Below, in pieces: positions 46,324 to 53,172 of a stretch of 64,000 nt of DNA (the stretch's first letter is position 1; each line of letters starts with the position of its first letter). The DNA is from a virus. Under the pieces are notes generated by a model, which was given only the letters and a program-made list of their open reading frames with translations, made no database searches and had not been told where the DNA came from. A program made the position numbers and the translations under genes. Where the stretch lies: positions 215-64,214 of IMG/VR virus record IMGVR_UViG_3300047160_015936. The stretch is one strand, 5' to 3'.

Positions 46324-48612
46324 TGTGGCGGTGCCTGTGCTTGAGGAATATTCAGGTTTGGCGCAGCGATGTCCGGAGTCTGGGCATTCTTGAACTTTCC
46401 GTCCGTGCCTAGCCGTTGATCCGGCGCTTCGGCACCGTCCGGCATCTGTCCGCCCATCGACGTCGGCGTCTGCGTGAGGTTCTGCTTCACCCCGGCAGCG
46501 ATTTGCGCCTCCGCCGAAGACATCTCCGTCATCATCGGCTCGTTCGGGTCCACGCCGAGACTTTGGAAAGCCACTTGTCTCGCGACAATATCCGCAACGG
46601 TCGCCTTGATGTGATCGTACCAAATCTGCTTCTGGTCAATAGGCAACGTCTTGAACTCGTCTGTCTTCGCAAAGTCCGTGTGTTGAATCAGGTGTACCTG
46701 ACTGTTTTGGACTAACGGAACCAGCTCCGGCGGAGCACCCGAAGTGAGAAACGCATCGGCTTCTTTTACGGCTTCGCGAACGTCGAGATCGACTGAGCCT
46801 TTGATCTTGGTCTCGCCGAAGATTTCCAAAATCCGCCAATTCTGTTCCGGATCGGCGGGGTTGATAACCCCAAACTGCGCGAGCTGCGCCAGCGTCGCCC
46901 GTTCCGTCGCCTGACTCTTCGGGAAGAGTGAGTTGTAGTCGATGACGACGTTCACCGCTCCCTGAAGGTCACTCTTCATAAACTTCATCGTCTCCCATTG
47001 TTTGTTCCGTCCGGCCATGACACGAATCCGCGTATCGTCCCAATTCGCCCGCGCAAGTTCGAGTTGCTGCTCTTCGAAGCACTTCCAACCCTTCGCCCAA
47101 GCTTGCACGAACGGCGAGAGCGCCTTTTGGCCCTTTTCACCGAGGAAGGCAAGAGCTGACGCTGCGGTTACGCCGGGAGGCGCTTGACCAGACTCAAGAT
47201 AAAACGTCCCCGCAAGCCGCTCCATCTGATCGTCGAGCATTTTAATGAGAATCAGCATCGGTTGGACGTTACTCAGCTCCGCCGGAATACGTTCGGGTTT
47301 CGCGAACGACGTTCCGCCAAGCGAAACCGGGTTATACTTTACAACCTGTCCCGGCTCACCGGTGAGCGCGTCAACACCGGAACCCTTGGGGTCTAACCAA
47401 ATCGCATTGCCCATACGCTGAGCCGTCAGACGCAAATTCGCCTCAACGGTGTTACGAAACATCTGCGGAGCAATGAGGTCGTCCATGCGCGTCTTGCGCC
47501 AGAACCGTCCCGGAACGACGTCAAACCCGAATTGATTCAACGGGAGAAACTTCTGTCCTTTGCGTACTCCGGAACCATACTCCGTCGGCAGCTCATCGGC
47601 CTCAACGACATTCATCGTTCCTTGCCCGAGACGGACCGCGCGAAGACCGTCCGGGAAGTCCTCCGAGGGAAGTTCGTAGAACTCATAAACGGTAACTTTG
47701 GGGTTCTTCGGTGAGAACGGCGCTCCGCCGATGAAGCCCCCGGAGGCCGAAAAAGACCCTGTCACGTGAGCAAGAACGTCAAGATAATATTGACTGAGAT
47801 CGTTCCCGAAATCCGCCGTGATGCTGTCGGCGTAATCCGGCCAAGTCTCCTTGGCATAATCAAGATCATACCGACGGAGCCGGACAAACCGATGCTGTTC
47901 TTCCCACGTCCGAATCCGGTGATCTAACCGAATCTCAAATGGCGAGCAAACGTCGGTGTTCAGTGAGCCGATTGGTAACTCCTGCGTTCCCGGCGTCACC
48001 GGTCCTTGCTGGCACACCGGACAGCCCCCGAGGAGACGTGCTTGCGCCTGCATCTCCGGCTGAGTGATGAACTCGCCGCAGTTTTGACACGAGAGTCCTT
48101 CAACCGTCACAGTTCCGTAACGTTTGTCAAAGTCGTAGTAGTTAATGAGAAAGGCGTTCCCGGTGAGGACTAACCACGACGCGAGTTCTTCTTCTTTCGA
48201 CTCTACCCGGCATTCTTCATAGAAGACTTCACGGACACGCTCACATATCTCTGCCGTAGACTGAGACGCGGGGTCATCATTCGCCGGACGGTAATTAATC
48301 GCGCGGTTCGTCTGCAACAACGCCGTCTTGAGGTCGTTGGCGACTTTCTGAAACGTGTTCGTCTGGGCGCGCGGGAACCACGCCGGGAGAATACGATTCC
48401 TCCAGCGGCCACGTTCAAATATGATCCACTGTTGCCCTACTGCGAACAAAATATTACGAAACCAATCTTTCCCTTTCAAAGAGCGCCCTTTGATAACGAT
48501 CCGTACTCAAGCAACGATCAATACGGCTCGAAATCGCAAGACGATCCTCGAAAGGGTCATCGGTTTTTGGTTTCACTTCGTAATTCAAAAGTTCATTATA
48601 TGACGGTTCCAT
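46320..48612 (-). CDS. Portal protein (apparent +1 frameshift near 48470)
   Basis: W.RNI.F..GQQW, TGNAF, SPFEI, Gln/Pro-rich tail; SD-bearing 52-codon ORF 48612-48454 supplies the N-terminus. Confidence 0.85.
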
Positions 48613-49063
48613 GTGAAACTACTTCCTCCTCTCCCTCGCTTTTAATCGAGAGATTCGGCAAAAGGCCGCAGAAATTTTTAGCTTCAACTTCATGAGGACA
48701 GTAACCAAGTCTGCCCTTCGCAAAATTACAATTCAGACAAAGAATCTCGATTGACTCGGGAAAGGAATTGTCAATGATCCAACGATAGGTTCCCTCACCG
48801 CCAAGACGATGCGGAGTTCCGTGCATATTCCGCCAACCATGTTTATGTTCAATGGTTAGAAAAATCTCACGAGTCTCACCACAACATTTACAAATCCAAC
48901 CATAGTGGTCGTAAACTTGCTTTTTATATGCGACTAGCTTTTCAGCGTGAACTTGTTTCTGTCGCTCGCGACATTTTGCACAGCAAGTTCTATCGGTTCG
49001 ATCTTTCGATTCTCCACATTCGATACAAAGACCGGCTTGTCTTCGATTGATTTTGAATGGCAT
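48596..49063 (-). CDS. HNH homing endonuclease
   Basis: CIECG; YG..CKCCGE....LTIEH...ILCLNCN. Confidence 0.85.
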   Translation of the reverse strand: MPFKINRRQAGLCIECGESKDRTDRTCCAKCRERQKQVHAEKLVAYKKQVYDHYGWICKCCGETREIFLTIEHKHGWRNMHGTPHRLGGEGTYRWIIDNSFPESIEILCLNCNFAKGRLGYCPHEVEAKNFCGLLPNLSIKSEGEEEVVSHGTVI

Positions 49064-49088
49064 TTGCGAAATGACGCGTCGGTTGACT

Positions 49089-49379
49089 TTAGGTTTCTTT
49101 GCCAGCAATTTCGGGTTCCTCTTTTGGTGATAGGGTTTCCTCACTCGCCTCAGAATAAATTTCCCAAACCTGTCGTTGCTGTTTCTCGAACGCGTCTTTC
49201 GCTTCCGCAAAAGCGTCACGTTCTTTCTTTACCGCATTGTCGGAGATTGGCGACGCGCCGAGATAGGCGATAAGCGAATCTGCGGCTCGGTCGGCGCGTT
49301 CGCGTTCGGTCTCCGCCTTCGCACGATAAAACGCCAATTCTCGCTGAAGATACTCGTATTCTCGTTTATTAATCCACAC
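49089..49379 (-). CDS. Coiled-coil hypothetical protein
   Basis: Between TerL and portal. Confidence 0.65.
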   Translation of the reverse strand: MWINKREYEYLQRELAFYRAKAETERERADRAADSLIAYLGASPISDNAVKKERDAFAEAKDAFEKQQRQVWEIYSEASEETLSPKEEPEIAGKET

Positions 49380-49571: not shown

Positions 49572-52082
49572 CTATCCTTCCCACTCAATTCTACCACCGA
49601 CGAAGACACTATCGCTACCCGGATCGTCATCGACGAAGTCTTGCAGAGACTCGCGGAGAAGCTGACCCCCCTGCTTCTTCTGCTGACGTTGCTCGATACG
49701 TCTGTCGAGGTCTGCGTAAGCTTTCGCCGAGAGAGGATCGACTGCTTGAAGATGCGCGAGACGCGCATTCGTTTTTGGTAGCTCGCTCACACGCGGACGT
49801 GCGAAAACACCATAACGAATCGACTCCATGATGTCGTATCTCTCGTCTTTCGTCTTCTTCCACGTGTTGACTTTGTTTTCGTCCCACGTGAGACTTTTGT
49901 ATTCTTCTTTTAAATCCGTTAAGTCGTCGAAGATGAACAGTCGCGGAGACGGTTTTGGTTTCCCTTCGGCGTCTACCCCGAACTTCCCCCACCACTCCGG
50001 GGACTGCGTGTCTTTTACCCATGACGGCAAAGCGTTGCTCGGCGCGACGTGTAAGTATTCGCCTAACTGAATCGTCCCCGGCACGAGTGCCTTACGCGCA
50101 GGCTGACAATGAATGCCTTGTTCCGAAAGTTCCAACATCGCCAGCTTGTTCTCAGGATCAATCACGAACGTCGTCCGGGCATAGTCATTCCACGGAGTGT
50201 TCTCTTTCAACCACCGTACAATCGTCGAACTATTCACTCCGGGTTCCTTATACGTATTCACGACGACAAGGTAACCCTTCTCGTCCACGGCCATATCGCT
50301 GATCCCCCACGGACACTCACCGCCGACATCGATAGTGACGATCCTGTTCCAATGATTCGGAATCGCGAAGCGTTTGATGTTATGCACGCTCCACGGGGTG
50401 AGTTCTTTGAAGATACGTCCGGAGAAGTCGTCGAACGAACCGTAAATGTAACGTCTCACCCAATCCGGCGGGGACTGACGGATGATCGTGTCGAAGTAAT
50501 CGTCGGCGACAAACCCGCCCTTGCTCTCCCGATTAGCTTCTGAGCTGACCATCATGCTCATGATTTCGCCCCGGCGCTGCACGCGTTGTATCTCCCCGGC
50601 GTCGAGATCGCGGCAATCCGGGAAGAACTGTTTTTGTAACCAGTCATGCCCGTTCGGGTTCATCGCAGCGAAACCGAACTTTCTCGCCGCGCGCGGGTTA
50701 CGTAACCGTCCGACCATCGTCATCCAATGCGGTTCTTCCATTTCCTCAACTTGGTCGAGAAAGAACCAGCCGAGGTTCGCGCCGACGCGCCGTGACTTCG
50801 TCCCGGCTTTGCTGTCATGAATATGCCGGAAGAAAATCATCGAACCGTTTGTCAACGTCACAACCTGAGTCTTCTTCGCGTAACTGCGTATCCAGTTACT
50901 CGGACAGGTTTCAAAAAACACCGGAATTGTCGAGTCGAGAAGGTCGCTCGCATGGTAACGTCCGACGATGCCTTGATTGCCGGGATAAGCGGCGGAGAGA
51001 ACGAGTCCTTTGATAATCCCGGCTTTGCTCTTACCGCTATTGTGATGGTACAACCCTTGCGCGGAATAATGCTCAGCAAAAGGCACGGAAAGATCGTAAA
51101 AGTCTCCATTCTCAACGTAAGTAATTTCTGAAATGATGTCCCAAAATGTGTTAGAATAATTAAATGCGTCGTTACTCTGTTTCTCGTTTGAAACCCATTC
51201 CGAAAGAGCAGCTTTTAGCCGCGTTGGAAACTTGCACAACTGCTGGACAAATCGGCGAACGCTTAGGCTTTGTTCGGGAAACGATTGTAAAACACTTGAA
51301 ATATCATGGCATTCCCATTCCTCGCTTTGAGAGTTGGTACGACACATTACCTGTGGAGGAAATTGCTTCTCGTTACCTTGCAGGAGAAGATTGTGGGCAA
51401 ATCGCCGAAAGCTACAAGGATTTAATTCCCAAAGGTATAAAAAAACCTCAAGAAGCCATTCGCGTTGTTTTAAAACGCAGGGGAATTCAGCGTCGGCGAT
51501 ATTCTGCCATCGCGGTTGGCGAAAAGAATTATCAATGGAAAGGTGGGAACCGAATAACACCCATGCACTATCATCGCAGACAGTCCTACGAAGTTGCAGC
51601 AATTTGTCTTGGAAAGCCACTTCCGTCGGGTGCGGTAATTCATCATCTCGACGAGAATCCGTACAACAATAACCCCGAAAATCTGATCGTTTTCCCCACG
51701 CAAAAGAACCACGCTCGTTATCATCAGCAGCTATTGGTGATCCGACGGAAAGGTCTCGAAGTTTCGACCATCCGGTTAGCGTTAGAAAACGGTGGTCAAG
51801 AGTTACATCGACCTGACGGCCTGAAAGGGTGCGAACTCTATACAAATCCGCCCGACCTTTCAGATAAGGATTTGAGGGGCGGCAGAGGCCGAAAAGAGTG
51901 GAGAGTTCCTCCTGCCGACGTTCCGCAATCGGAATCCCGCCAATAAGAGTTTCTCCGGCAACACAACCCCACCCGCTACTGACGACGCTAAGCTTCTCCG
52001 GCGAGAAAATCCAATCCTTCTGCCAAGGCAAAAGCTTAATGGTGAGGTCTGCGACGTTCACGTTATTCTGCGGTAACGTCAT
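49572..52082 (-). CDS. terL: Terminase large subunit, intein-containing
   Basis: PWQ, Walker A GWG|SGKS split by the intein, FFLDQVEE, MNP, TIDVG, YDIMESIRY. Confidence 0.93.
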   Translation of the reverse strand: MTLPQNNVNVADLTIKLLPWQKDWIFSPEKLSVVSSGWGCVAGETLIGGIPIAERRQEELSTLFGLCRPSNPYLKGRADLYRVRTLSGRQVDVTLDHRFLTLTGWSKLRDLSVGSPIAADDNERGSFAWGKRSDFRGYCCTDSRRDDELPHPTEVAFQDKLLQLRRTVCDDSAWVLFGSHLSIDNSFRQPRWQNIADAEFPCVLKQREWLLEVFLYLWELNPCSFRRFAHNLLLQGNEKQFPPQVMCRTNSQSEEWECHDISSVLQSFPEQSLSVRRFVQQLCKFPTRLKAALSEWVSNEKQSNDAFNYSNTFWDIISEITYVENGDFYDLSVPFAEHYSAQGLYHHNSGKSKAGIIKGLVLSAAYPGNQGIVGRYHASDLLDSTIPVFFETCPSNWIRSYAKKTQVVTLTNGSMIFFRHIHDSKAGTKSRRVGANLGWFFLDQVEEMEEPHWMTMVGRLRNPRAARKFGFAAMNPNGHDWLQKQFFPDCRDLDAGEIQRVQRRGEIMSMMVSSEANRESKGGFVADDYFDTIIRQSPPDWVRRYIYGSFDDFSGRIFKELTPWSVHNIKRFAIPNHWNRIVTIDVGGECPWGISDMAVDEKGYLVVVNTYKEPGVNSSTIVRWLKENTPWNDYARTTFVIDPENKLAMLELSEQGIHCQPARKALVPGTIQLGEYLHVAPSNALPSWVKDTQSPEWWGKFGVDAEGKPKPSPRLFIFDDLTDLKEEYKSLTWDENKVNTWKKTKDERYDIMESIRYGVFARPRVSELPKTNARLAHLQAVDPLSAKAYADLDRRIEQRQQKKQGGQLLRESLQDFVDDDPGSDSVFVGGRIEWEG
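51147..51157 (+). promoter_or_regulatory. Extended -10 promoter for the antisense HNH (leaderless)
   Basis: TGTGTTAGAAT, ATG 7 nt downstream at 51164. Confidence 0.65.
51164..51946 (+). CDS. HNH homing endonuclease encoded antisense inside the TerL intein
   Basis: Two HTH units, GEKNYQWKGG, LGKPL....VIHHLDENPYNNNPENL.VF..Q..HARYH. Confidence 0.88.
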   Translation: MRRYSVSRLKPIPKEQLLAALETCTTAGQIGERLGFVRETIVKHLKYHGIPIPRFESWYDTLPVEEIASRYLAGEDCGQIAESYKDLIPKGIKKPQEAIRVVLKRRGIQRRRYSAIAVGEKNYQWKGGNRITPMHYHRRQSYEVAAICLGKPLPSGAVIHHLDENPYNNNPENLIVFPTQKNHARYHQQLLVIRRKGLEVSTIRLALENGGQELHRPDGLKGCELYTNPPDLSDKDLRGGRGRKEWRVPPADVPQSESRQ

Positions 52083-52233
52083 GATAATGTCTTCGGTGTC
52101 TCAGGAGGTCGGCGAGAGCACAGTGGAGGAGGACCATGCTCTCGCCGTTCTTGCGGGAGGAGGGAGGAGGAGATGAGCGAGAAGGGTAAGAGCGGATGCT
52201 CGGGCGCAACGCCTTCTCACTCGGAAGAAAAAC

Positions 52234-53172
52234 CTAAAACGGGTTGCTTTGAAAGTGACAATACCCACCGGGGGATTGCACGATCTGCGCAGCCGCAGCG
52301 GATTGGGCATACACTTGCTGGTACAAAATCACTTTATTATCGGTATTGAAAATAACCGGAGTGTTCAGGGCGATATTCTCACTGAAAAACGCACCGGCGG
52401 TTGTCGTGCCCAGATTTGCCGAACCAACCACGGGAGTTACCGTAACCGCACCGAGAGATGCGGGGGTAACCGTTGAGGGTGTCTCACTCGTTCCGGGGGC
52501 CGGGAGAGTAATCGTATTCAACGTCGGAGCACCCAGAGACGTCAACGCAGTCGTCTGAATTCCGTACAAAATCGTGCAGTCGTTCAAGGTTGAGCCTTTG
52601 CCGGTCGTCAGACGTGACGGCACCGGAATCCAACACGTAAGGGTGTCGTTTGTCGCGCCCGCGCCGCTTGTCTGCGCCTGCACAGTGGGAACGAAACTCG
52701 CTCCGGTCGCCGTGAGACCATTCGTACCGGTCGGCGTCCCTGAAGCGTTCCACGCGCACGCCCCGGCGGGAAAGTACAGCAAGTTATCCGTCGCAGCAGC
52801 CGTGGCGTTACTTGTCGGGTTAGCATCTGGCGGAACGATGATGTTTTGTGTAAACGCGCCGAGAGCGTTGTTCGCCGTCACGGTGCTCCATTGAATCTGA
52901 TAAATCCCCGGAGCGGCGAAAAAACTTACGCTTGATTGTAAACCAATCGCGACGGGTTGAGAGATCGTGGTGTTTCCGGCTTTGTCCGAAGTGATCGTGA
53001 TCGTCGGCGAGATCGGGTTACCCGAAGCCGCTGCCGTACCGACGCGGAACTGTGACGGGTAGTTCAAATATGCTGTTGGAACCTGTACGGTGACAAACCC
53101 TTGCTGCGCGAACGCCGAAAGACCACACAACGTGATCATCGCGGCGATCAGTGTCTTGATAAAATTTTTCAT
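52234..53172 (-). CDS. Beta-rich virion-like protein with Sec signal peptide
   Basis: MKNFIKTLIAAMITLCGLSAFA|QQ; Thr/Ala/Gly-rich. Confidence 0.75.
   Translation of the reverse strand: MKNFIKTLIAAMITLCGLSAFAQQGFVTVQVPTAYLNYPSQFRVGTAAASGNPISPTITITSDKAGNTTISQPVAIGLQSSVSFFAAPGIYQIQWSTVTANNALGAFTQNIIVPPDANPTSNATAAATDNLLYFPAGACAWNASGTPTGTNGLTATGASFVPTVQAQTSGAGATNDTLTCWIPVPSRLTTGKGSTLNDCTILYGIQTTALTSLGAPTLNTITLPAPGTSETPSTVTPASLGAVTVTPVVGSANLGTTTAGAFFSENIALNTPVIFNTDNKVILYQQVYAQSAAAAQIVQSPGGYCHFQSNPF

Follow-up and report, generated by a model that had tools for sequence, protein, structure and literature searches.

An HNH_3 homing endonuclease gene antisense within the intein of a phage terminase gene, a probable two-strand selfish element

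The 64,000-nucleotide (nt) stretch of viral DNA considered here (positions 215 to 64,214 of IMG/VR record IMGVR_UViG_3300047160_015936; hereafter the window, in whose numbering the coordinates are given) encodes on its minus strand a precursor of the terminase large subunit TerL, which is interrupted within its Walker A motif by an intein, and on the plus strand of the same intein DNA a protein with two helix-turn-helix (HTH) modules and an HNH_3 nuclease domain. Taken together, a cis-splicing intein and an antisense HTH-HTH-HNH_3 homing endonuclease gene very probably constitute one two-strand selfish element in terL, the activities and transcription of which we infer.

The terL gene (49572-52082, minus strand) encodes a precursor of 836 amino acids (aa) including the intein, and is assigned by its open reading frame (ORF), by Pfam Terminase_3 (aa 398-494, E 1.6e-5, 25.0 bits against a cutoff of 23.2), by PHROGs families of the terminase large subunit and by 98 homologues. 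Its N-extein (51966-52082, aa 1-39), delimited by eye in an alignment to the intein-less homologues P0062 and P0063, ends with the first half of Walker A (..SSGWG). The intein (51039-51965, 309 aa), placed by Intein_splicing PF14890 and by ends which are kept in relatives, extends from C40 to N348 of the ORF, and S349 as the +1 residue opens the C-extein (49572-51038, stop codon included) with SGKS, followed by the ATPase and nuclease domains, the C-extein being 33-52% identical to the 98 TerL homologues. Compared with P0062 (GGFASGKT) and P0063 (GGFGSGKT), both uninterrupted at the insertion site, the insertion appears precise and in frame, and splicing would rejoin ..SSGWG-SGKS.. in alignment with GGFASGKT of P0062. 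A tblastn search against a named phage collection gave distant TerL matches in the C-extein only (19 records, all below 60% identity).

The splicing blocks CVAGET, TLDH, FYDLSVP and HHN|S as well as the split of Walker A as GWG|SGKS, which an earlier note on this DNA had read as an intact TerL intein, are all present, and the 836-aa product matches PF14890 (aa 75-348, E 3.4e-9, 37.1 bits against a cutoff of 35.8). The N-terminal splicing domain (51711-51965, minus strand, intein aa 1-85) contains block A, CVAGET, and block B, TLDH, the latter at 51792-51803; the C-terminal splicing domain (51039-51155, minus strand, intein aa 271-309) runs from FYDLSVP to the terminus ...GLYHHN|SGKS, with His-Asn followed by Ser +1. 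With its C1 nucleophile and block B TLDH the intein belongs to class 1, and an alignment of 23 inteins shows no variation at C1, H58, H308 or N309. In the AlphaFold2 model built with these 23 sequences, residues 1-80 reach a predicted local distance difference test (pLDDT) score of 93-98 and residues 271-309 one of 92-98, the two halves being beta-rich as in a HINT fold, and residues 86-270 score 34-64. The latter correspond to the in-frame linker (51156-51710, minus strand, intein aa 86-270), which is stop-free, is not conserved among relatives and has no predicted fold. The intact catalytic residues and the essential role of TerL suggest that the intein is active in protein splicing.

Nested antisense in the intein, the plus strand encodes the 260-aa HNH protein (51164-51946), its two HTH modules followed by HNH_3, as assigned by Pfam, PHROGs, homologues and AlphaFold2. 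The clean HNH reading frame described in the earlier note is thus found again, with a match to HNH_3 PF13392 above the cutoff (aa 150-183, E 9.6e-9, 35.2 bits against 24.8), and the product also matches phrog_7545, HNH endonuclease (E 3.9e-11). In a large protein collection, 61 of 718 candidates are homologues at E 0.001 or better with 37-60% identity, and HTH families plus PF13392 are precomputed on most of them. The catalytic core (51611-51724, plus strand, aa 150-187, HH..DENP.NN.PENL...H..YH), identified by Pfam and alignment, is 50-66% identical to 14 relatives; among 27 aligned sequences, that of the window being one, the columns H161, E164, P171, N173, H183 and H187 do not vary. AlphaFold2 with this alignment predicts the protein with a mean pLDDT of 83, above 90 in two helical HTH modules (around aa 10-50 and 60-110) and in the HNH core with the next helices (around aa 140-220), and low in the tail from about aa 225. 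A single-protein scan of viral contigs returned no relative, but alignment-based scans did find relatives; tblastn against the named phage collection gave three partial matches, and no HNH paralogue was found elsewhere in the window.

The frames are arranged such that codon position 1 lies opposite 1, 2 opposite 3 and 3 opposite 2; in this 1-opposite-1 phase each wobble base is paired with a second codon base on the other strand. Across the 260 HNH codons the intein frame contains no stop, compared with 18 and 10 stops in the other two antisense frames. Antisense frames can in general be open in GC-rich DNA, and a chance open frame, or an artefact of assembly or annotation, might be held responsible. 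The GC content of the intein, however, is only 46.6%, against 53.6% in the terL exteins and 52.4% in the window, a lower value which also fits acquisition from elsewhere. Shuffling synonymous codons of the HNH ORF produced on average 10.9 stops in the intein frame and shuffling codon order 12.6, with 0 of 2000 shuffles stop-free in either case; measured against the synonymous shuffles, the open intein frame is therefore not due to chance. As near-identical sequence is also present in contigs of several soil runs, and dozens of independent loci have the same layout, chance or artefact has a negligible probability and is counted as refuted by the shuffle test together with the recurrence in inteins collected independently of the HNH gene, which is described below.

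The overlap reaches well into the splicing machinery. The last approximately 80 HNH codons cross the N-terminal splicing domain, of whose approximately 255 bases the HNH ORF covers about 235 (51711-51946), block B included, to end 19 bases from the first codon of the intein. One stretch (51768-51803) is kept on both strands, encoding block B (TLDHRFLTLTGW) on the minus strand and the HNH-family motif IRLALENGGQ on the plus strand, with 40-60% identity to relatives in both frames. The view of the earlier note, that the HNH gene lies opposite an antisense junk linker, consequently holds in part: the linker is motif-less and has no fold in the AlphaFold2 model, but the overlap also takes in the N-terminal splicing domain and block B. 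Identity of the minus frame to that of 14 close relatives amounts to 40-67% over 51714-51965, 53-68% over 51039-51128 and 4-14% over 51174-51533 (4-31% over the linker segment 51156-51710 overall), and identity of the plus frame to 43-66% over 51534-51668. A known in-frame domain in the linker, which the earlier note had named as a finding that would speak against its proposal, did not emerge from Pfam: the linker alone (51204-51707, minus strand) matches no family above the cutoff, the sole match being DUF5546 (E 0.025, 15 bits against a cutoff of 29.4). The linker, of about 185 aa, is not a domain and needs only to stay stop-free.

Which frame is protected by selection can be read from the codon positions at which relatives differ, the substitutions being summed over 10 close pairs of 76-98% identity. 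In the linker, which is at the same time the HNH core, 261, 642 and 176 substitutions fall on intein positions 1, 2 and 3, a bias that is seen in 7 of 7 pairs without a shared element. Intein position 2 is HNH position 3, so the excess changes are silent for the HNH protein and always alter a linker residue; with 642 changes at HNH third positions against 261 and 176 at the others, it is therefore the HNH frame that is selected, the linker of the intein only being kept open. In the parts that code for the intein only, the corresponding counts are 33, 22 and 98 (N-terminal) and 24, 15 and 64 (C-terminal). Changes are sparsest where the N-terminal splicing domain overlaps the HNH tail, with 93 in 1652 sites compared with 1079 in 6210 in the core, and there they lean to intein position 3 (22, 29 and 42). 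The comparison of selection in both frames, as called for in the earlier note, hence finds the HNH frame protected along the linker, and supports that both frames are kept open by selection and that the selected frame switches along the element.

Relatives of the locus were collected in two ways. Scans with the HNH alignment covered the best 80 of 113 relatives in metagenome contigs, the best 80 of 150 in IMG/VR and 25 in genome contigs, in total 185 loci (given here with L numbers). A stop-free antisense ORF of at least 1200 nt encloses the HNH ORF in 35 of them and in the window, with one and the same codon phase throughout; deduplication leaves 28 distinct loci. The loci above 64 bits in the HNH scan are all embedded except L164 and L009, and the more distant HNH_3 matches provide a natural control, the antisense frame in question being broken by 1-11 stops along the matched part. 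When the 27 other distinct loci were subjected to synonymous shuffling, 0 to 9 of 300 shuffles stayed open. Eighteen of 20 antisense ORFs match Intein_splicing at E 0.01 or better, six of the 20 above the curated cutoff, and the remaining two, L170 and L155, have weak Hint-type matches; the exteins belong to terminase families, except in L165, where the interrupted protein is an SNF2-type helicase. Both intein ends are visible in 27 of the 28 distinct loci, the contig of L093 being cut, and each of these 27 HNH ORFs terminates 16-253 nt inside the intein.

A second search of IMG/VR, independent of the HNH gene, was seeded with the intein. As the 23-sequence intein alignment (A2) was too divergent for scanning, an 11-sequence subset (A3) and patterns derived from block B and block G were used, and 80 loci were kept. 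In line with the recurrence that the earlier note had suggested looking for among other inteins, 54 of these 80 have an uninterrupted antisense ORF that matches the HNH profile across the catalytic core, in the same phase in 54 of 54. Stops in homologues, which that note had listed among possible contradictions, were likewise looked for: the intein frame is stop-free in 51 of these 54 loci, the other three lacking one terminal match by which to judge. Seven of the 80 have an HNH match on the strand of the intein itself, three in the intein frame and four shifted by one base, and 16 have no HNH match. Another three (L207, L218 and L219; 125-150 aa match) are mini-inteins that retain an antisense tail remnant only. 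Their opposite strand matches just the tail of the HNH profile (positions approximately 168-237), the very part that overlaps block B, so that the match may merely reflect what the intein itself encodes, without being a relic. Both searches together yielded 69 elements with both ends, which form 55 clusters at 95% nucleotide identity, including a few of the same-strand type.

Some relatives differ in layout. L241 (850-3147, plus strand) encodes a helicase (ResIII/DEAD) with an intein of the splicing family of the window intein and HNH_3 in frame (aa 349-378), so that a single intein family comprises both in-frame and antisense HNH versions. A third layout is seen in L235 (1652-2266, plus strand) and also in L247, L239 and L242, where an ORF with HTH and HNH_3 lies on the strand of the intein, shifted by one base; in L235 it is a 205-aa ORF (HNH_3 E 3.3e-9) within a 260-aa intein. 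Single terminase ORFs with two or three inteins occur in L170, a cyanobacterial chromosome record, in L003 and in L031/L109, L170 combining a LAGLIDADG intein with an antisense-HNH intein before a CFDE motif.

Upstream of the HNH start codon lies a promoter-like box of the extended -10 type (TG-T-TAGAAT, 51149-51157, plus strand), found by a promoter scan as CTGAAA-18-TAGAAT; TG precedes the second hexamer, the last base of which is 51157, and 6 bases separate it from the ATG at 51164. The box described in the earlier note is thus present, and a homologous one recurs: 11 of 15 close relatives have a -10-like hexamer (TATAAT, TACAAT, TATTAT, TATGAT or TAGAAT) on the HNH strand at the same offset, 113 nt from the C-terminal end of the intein or 119 nt in L004 and L008. 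Exactly 6 bases separate box and ATG or GTG in eight sequences (the window, L081, L082, L162, L083, L086, L008 and L004), and in three (L002, L087 and L003) the box is followed by a leader of 9-24 nt with a GGAGG-like box. By eye, TACTAT-6-GTG in L001 and TATAAT with a longer leader in L085 are found at the homologous place; the box is missing in L163 and L005. The pattern TGnTAnnnT occurs within the first 260 nt of 14 of 27 inteins, compared with 80 of 953 control stretches. We hold it moderately probable, from this conservation, that the box is a real promoter which gives rise to a leaderless or near-leaderless transcript.

Several results weigh against this promoter or against the two-strand element as a whole. 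Within the window the box is one of two matches in a region where shuffled sequences give 1.3, so that its support comes from the comparison with relatives, and the same DNA codes for an intein peptide (Y-S-T-F-W-D) that is itself partly conserved, a possible reason for some of the box conservation. The box persists, though, despite differing minus-strand peptides (Y-S-T-F-W-D, Y-C-T-A-W-W-D, H-H-T-T-K-V-K-W and H-Y-T-P-H-F), which argues against a mere by-product of intein coding. The codon-position test, furthermore, draws on relatives, the window being left out and its nearest relative, L001, only 55% identical in the HNH protein. As for the nuclease, Foldseek with the HNH model found nothing in the PDB at E 0.001 or better, the weak top rows being bipartite HTH DNA-binding domains, and a PDB profile search reached I-HmuI (1u3e) at only E 0.56, which is not significant; its match to a tandem-HTH protein, 2lvs, has E 0.0018. 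The I-HmuI-type free-standing or intron-encoded phage HNH_3 homing endonucleases are the enzymes which we take the window HNH protein to resemble, and because neither search gave a significant I-HmuI match, this likeness is one of Pfam family and not of structural match. Another explanation for the DNA around the box, an old start codon in an upstream in-frame ATG-TGT-TA. (M-C-Y-N in relatives) that was later broken by stops, was dropped, as L087 and L003 have stops and a Shine-Dalgarno leader after the box; it is also undercut by the persistence of the box where the minus-strand peptide differs.

The distribution of the elements bears on their mobility. Among TerL homologues of the C-extein, 91 of 98 have intein-less length (475-562 aa) and 7 of 98 have 807-895 aa, and in several of the latter LAGLIDADG inteins are inserted elsewhere. 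Antisense-HNH elements are mostly inserted at G|[SCT]GK[ST] of the P-loop, and a few at ..GLM|SPNLPH or before a CFDE or SFLVFEE motif. The near-identical terminases L002 and L004/L008 (also L204 and L214) have the sites G|SGKT (P-loop) and ..GLM|SPNLPH, respectively. L002 and L004, the C-exteins of which are 82% identical over 154 aa, carry different family members (HNH 34% identical), the element of L002 in the P-loop and that of L004 26 residues downstream, each site being empty in the other. The sporadic distribution and the occupation of different sites in near-identical TerLs are indirect indications that the HNH protein may cleave or nick DNA site-specifically and promote homing. Two TerL homologues, P0124 and P0152 (848 and 856 aa), are interrupted close to their C-terminal ends by an intein (..RFD.|CF..T ... 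VKN|C) whose linker, approximately 250 aa long, is of low complexity and devoid of motifs, and such linkers may contain further hidden nuclease genes, antisense or out of frame.

Intein and HNH gene need not be functionally coupled: a free-standing HNH gene might use the intein as a safe harbour in which terL is not killed, target some other site and be a co-traveller and not part of a functional unit. With this would agree that the HNH family belongs with ordinary free-standing phage HNH_3 genes, the distant members being non-embedded and having the antisense stops mentioned above, that the gene has its own promoter-like box, and that an origin through invasion of inteins by free-standing endonuclease genes has been proposed by Gosselin et al. 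(bioRxiv 10.1101/2025.01.02.630785). Against it stand the 27 of 27 loci with both ends in which the HNH gene lies wholly inside the intein, in one phase, across exteins and insertion sites. Moreover, in 105 pairs of close elements HNH identity correlates with the identity of the splicing domain (r 0.49 for the N half and 0.39 for the C half) more than with that of the extein (r 0.19), which fits one unit moving together, and the co-traveller is accordingly regarded as improbable.

Still less probable, though not as remote as chance or artefact, is that the HNH ORF of the window is an inactive relic within a vertically inherited intein, the minus frame of which is open through terL function only. 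Mini-inteins with no more than a remnant of the HNH tail do exist among relatives (the 3 of 80 described above), and an intein-less allele of the same phage was not seen in Logan contigs of four soil runs, which are short pieces without a joint across the intein. An antisense relic should, however, gather stops fast, yet the plus-strand ORF runs uninterrupted through 260 codons; it retains every residue that does not vary across the family, among them the histidines and the asparagine of the HNH motif, the -10 box and its 6-base spacing persist as well, and the HNH frame of relatives shows the third-position bias.

The two-strand selfish element remains the reading in best agreement with these data, and the proposal of the earlier note, a composite selfish element with both strands kept open, is borne out by the shuffles, the recurrence in many exteins and the codon-position bias. 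On the minus strand, the class-1 intein between G and SGKS would be translated within TerL, splice itself out and restore the P-loop. On the plus strand, the same DNA is the real coding sequence of the HTH-HTH-HNH_3 endonuclease, which is predicted to cut or nick those terL alleles that lack the intein, in or close to their P-loop codons, when phages co-infect a cell, whereupon repair would copy intein and HNH gene into these alleles. Transcription from the extended -10 box would start at or next to the ATG, and the resulting leaderless mRNA would allow the HNH protein to be expressed apart from terL. A more far-reaching picture can be offered only tentatively, and is somewhat doubtful: antisense-HNH inteins might represent one old and successful lineage, in which promoter, nuclease and splicing domain are interleaved on two strands in a fixed phase, with a nuclease made from a leaderless transcript on its own schedule, for example before the late genes during replication, and convergent transcription over the intein that may tune terL; such a lineage could have jumped between P-loops of terminases and helicases and have given rise to the in-frame and the same-strand out-of-frame HNH versions.

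Antisense endonuclease genes in inteins are not without precedent. A survey of approximately 784 actinobacteriophage inteins describes inteins with antisense LAGLIDADG or VSR-like endonucleases, the hosts including terminase, with an in-frame linker without recognisable structure, and considers that such inteins are perhaps common and missed; for an antisense LAGLIDADG endonuclease in Synechocystis DnaX it cites Gorbalenya 1998 and Gogarten 2002, and a Chloroflexus SpoVR-like protein is mentioned there as another antisense LAGLIDADG case (Gosselin, Arsenault & Gogarten, bioRxiv 10.1101/2025.01.02.630785). The position of the earlier note, which had taken an antisense endonuclease as a departure from the in-frame norm, therefore has to be narrowed: the HNH type was not found in the full-text search described below, but antisense LAGLIDADG and VSR-like cases are in print. 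The window element shares with those described by Gosselin et al. a contiguous and presumably splicing intein, there often in TerL, an opposite-strand endonuclease ORF between the splicing blocks and a foldless linker. It differs in that the nuclease is HNH_3 with two HTH modules, HNH being listed in the main text of that study as an in-frame type only, and in its hosts, uncultured soil and environmental phages here and actinophages there; a promoter is not mentioned in that main text (0 occurrences). A full-text literature search found no paper on an antisense HNH gene in an intein, supplements, including that of Gosselin et al., which might list further types, lying outside its scope.

Other known arrangements are related in part. 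In fractured genes, a free-standing endonuclease gene lies between the halves of a split intein that splices in trans (Dassa et al. 2009, PMC2677866). Both systems have a homing endonuclease gene of free-standing type at the endonuclease insertion point of the intein, phage-like DNA and expression signals of their own; in contrast to the three ORFs on one strand and the split intein of fractured genes, the window has a single 836-aa ORF, an antisense HNH gene and a contiguous intein. The in-frame intein of L241 has the same splicing-domain family and Pfam nuclease family, but there the nuclease is part of the intein polypeptide, without a second gene, and the element as a whole is shorter (about 200 aa). 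With free-standing or intron HNH_3 phage enzymes the window protein has in common Pfam HNH_3 and DNA-binding modules beside a small HNH core, but unlike their genes its gene is nested antisense in a protein-coding intein and not placed in an intron or intergenic region. The element thus belongs, as an HNH_3 variant, to a kind of intein that has been published but is little known; what it adds to the parts of the literature covered are its type of nuclease, the extent and fixed phase of its family, the codon-position evidence for selection, the overlap with block B and the conserved promoter box of leaderless type.

With 54 of 80 relatives kept via the splicing domain alone, a separate antisense nuclease gene is a common and stable design of inteins in environmental phages. 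It also provides a clean natural case of long dual-strand coding, over approximately 780 bases, in which the selected frame is readable from the codon-position bias. Such inteins will be taken for decayed ones by gene callers and in intein surveys, or their nuclease will be missed, so that phage inteins are probably more mobile than estimated. Provided that the promoter functions as predicted, homing would be timed apart from the host gene, which bears on how homing elements spare late functions, and the element could supply compact HNH nickases with known P-loop-coding targets.

Near-identical pieces of the region 50600-52300 of the window occur in Logan contigs of many soil metagenome runs, nine of which hold at least half of the sampled words, which suggests that the phage is widespread in soil; no RNA run was among the runs listed for this sequence. 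Just downstream of terL, a 207-aa ORF (48596-49219, minus strand) is rich in CxxC pairs and basic residues and matches no Pfam family at E 0.1 or better; its position beside terL resembles that of terminase-associated zinc-binding nucleases, to which it may correspond.

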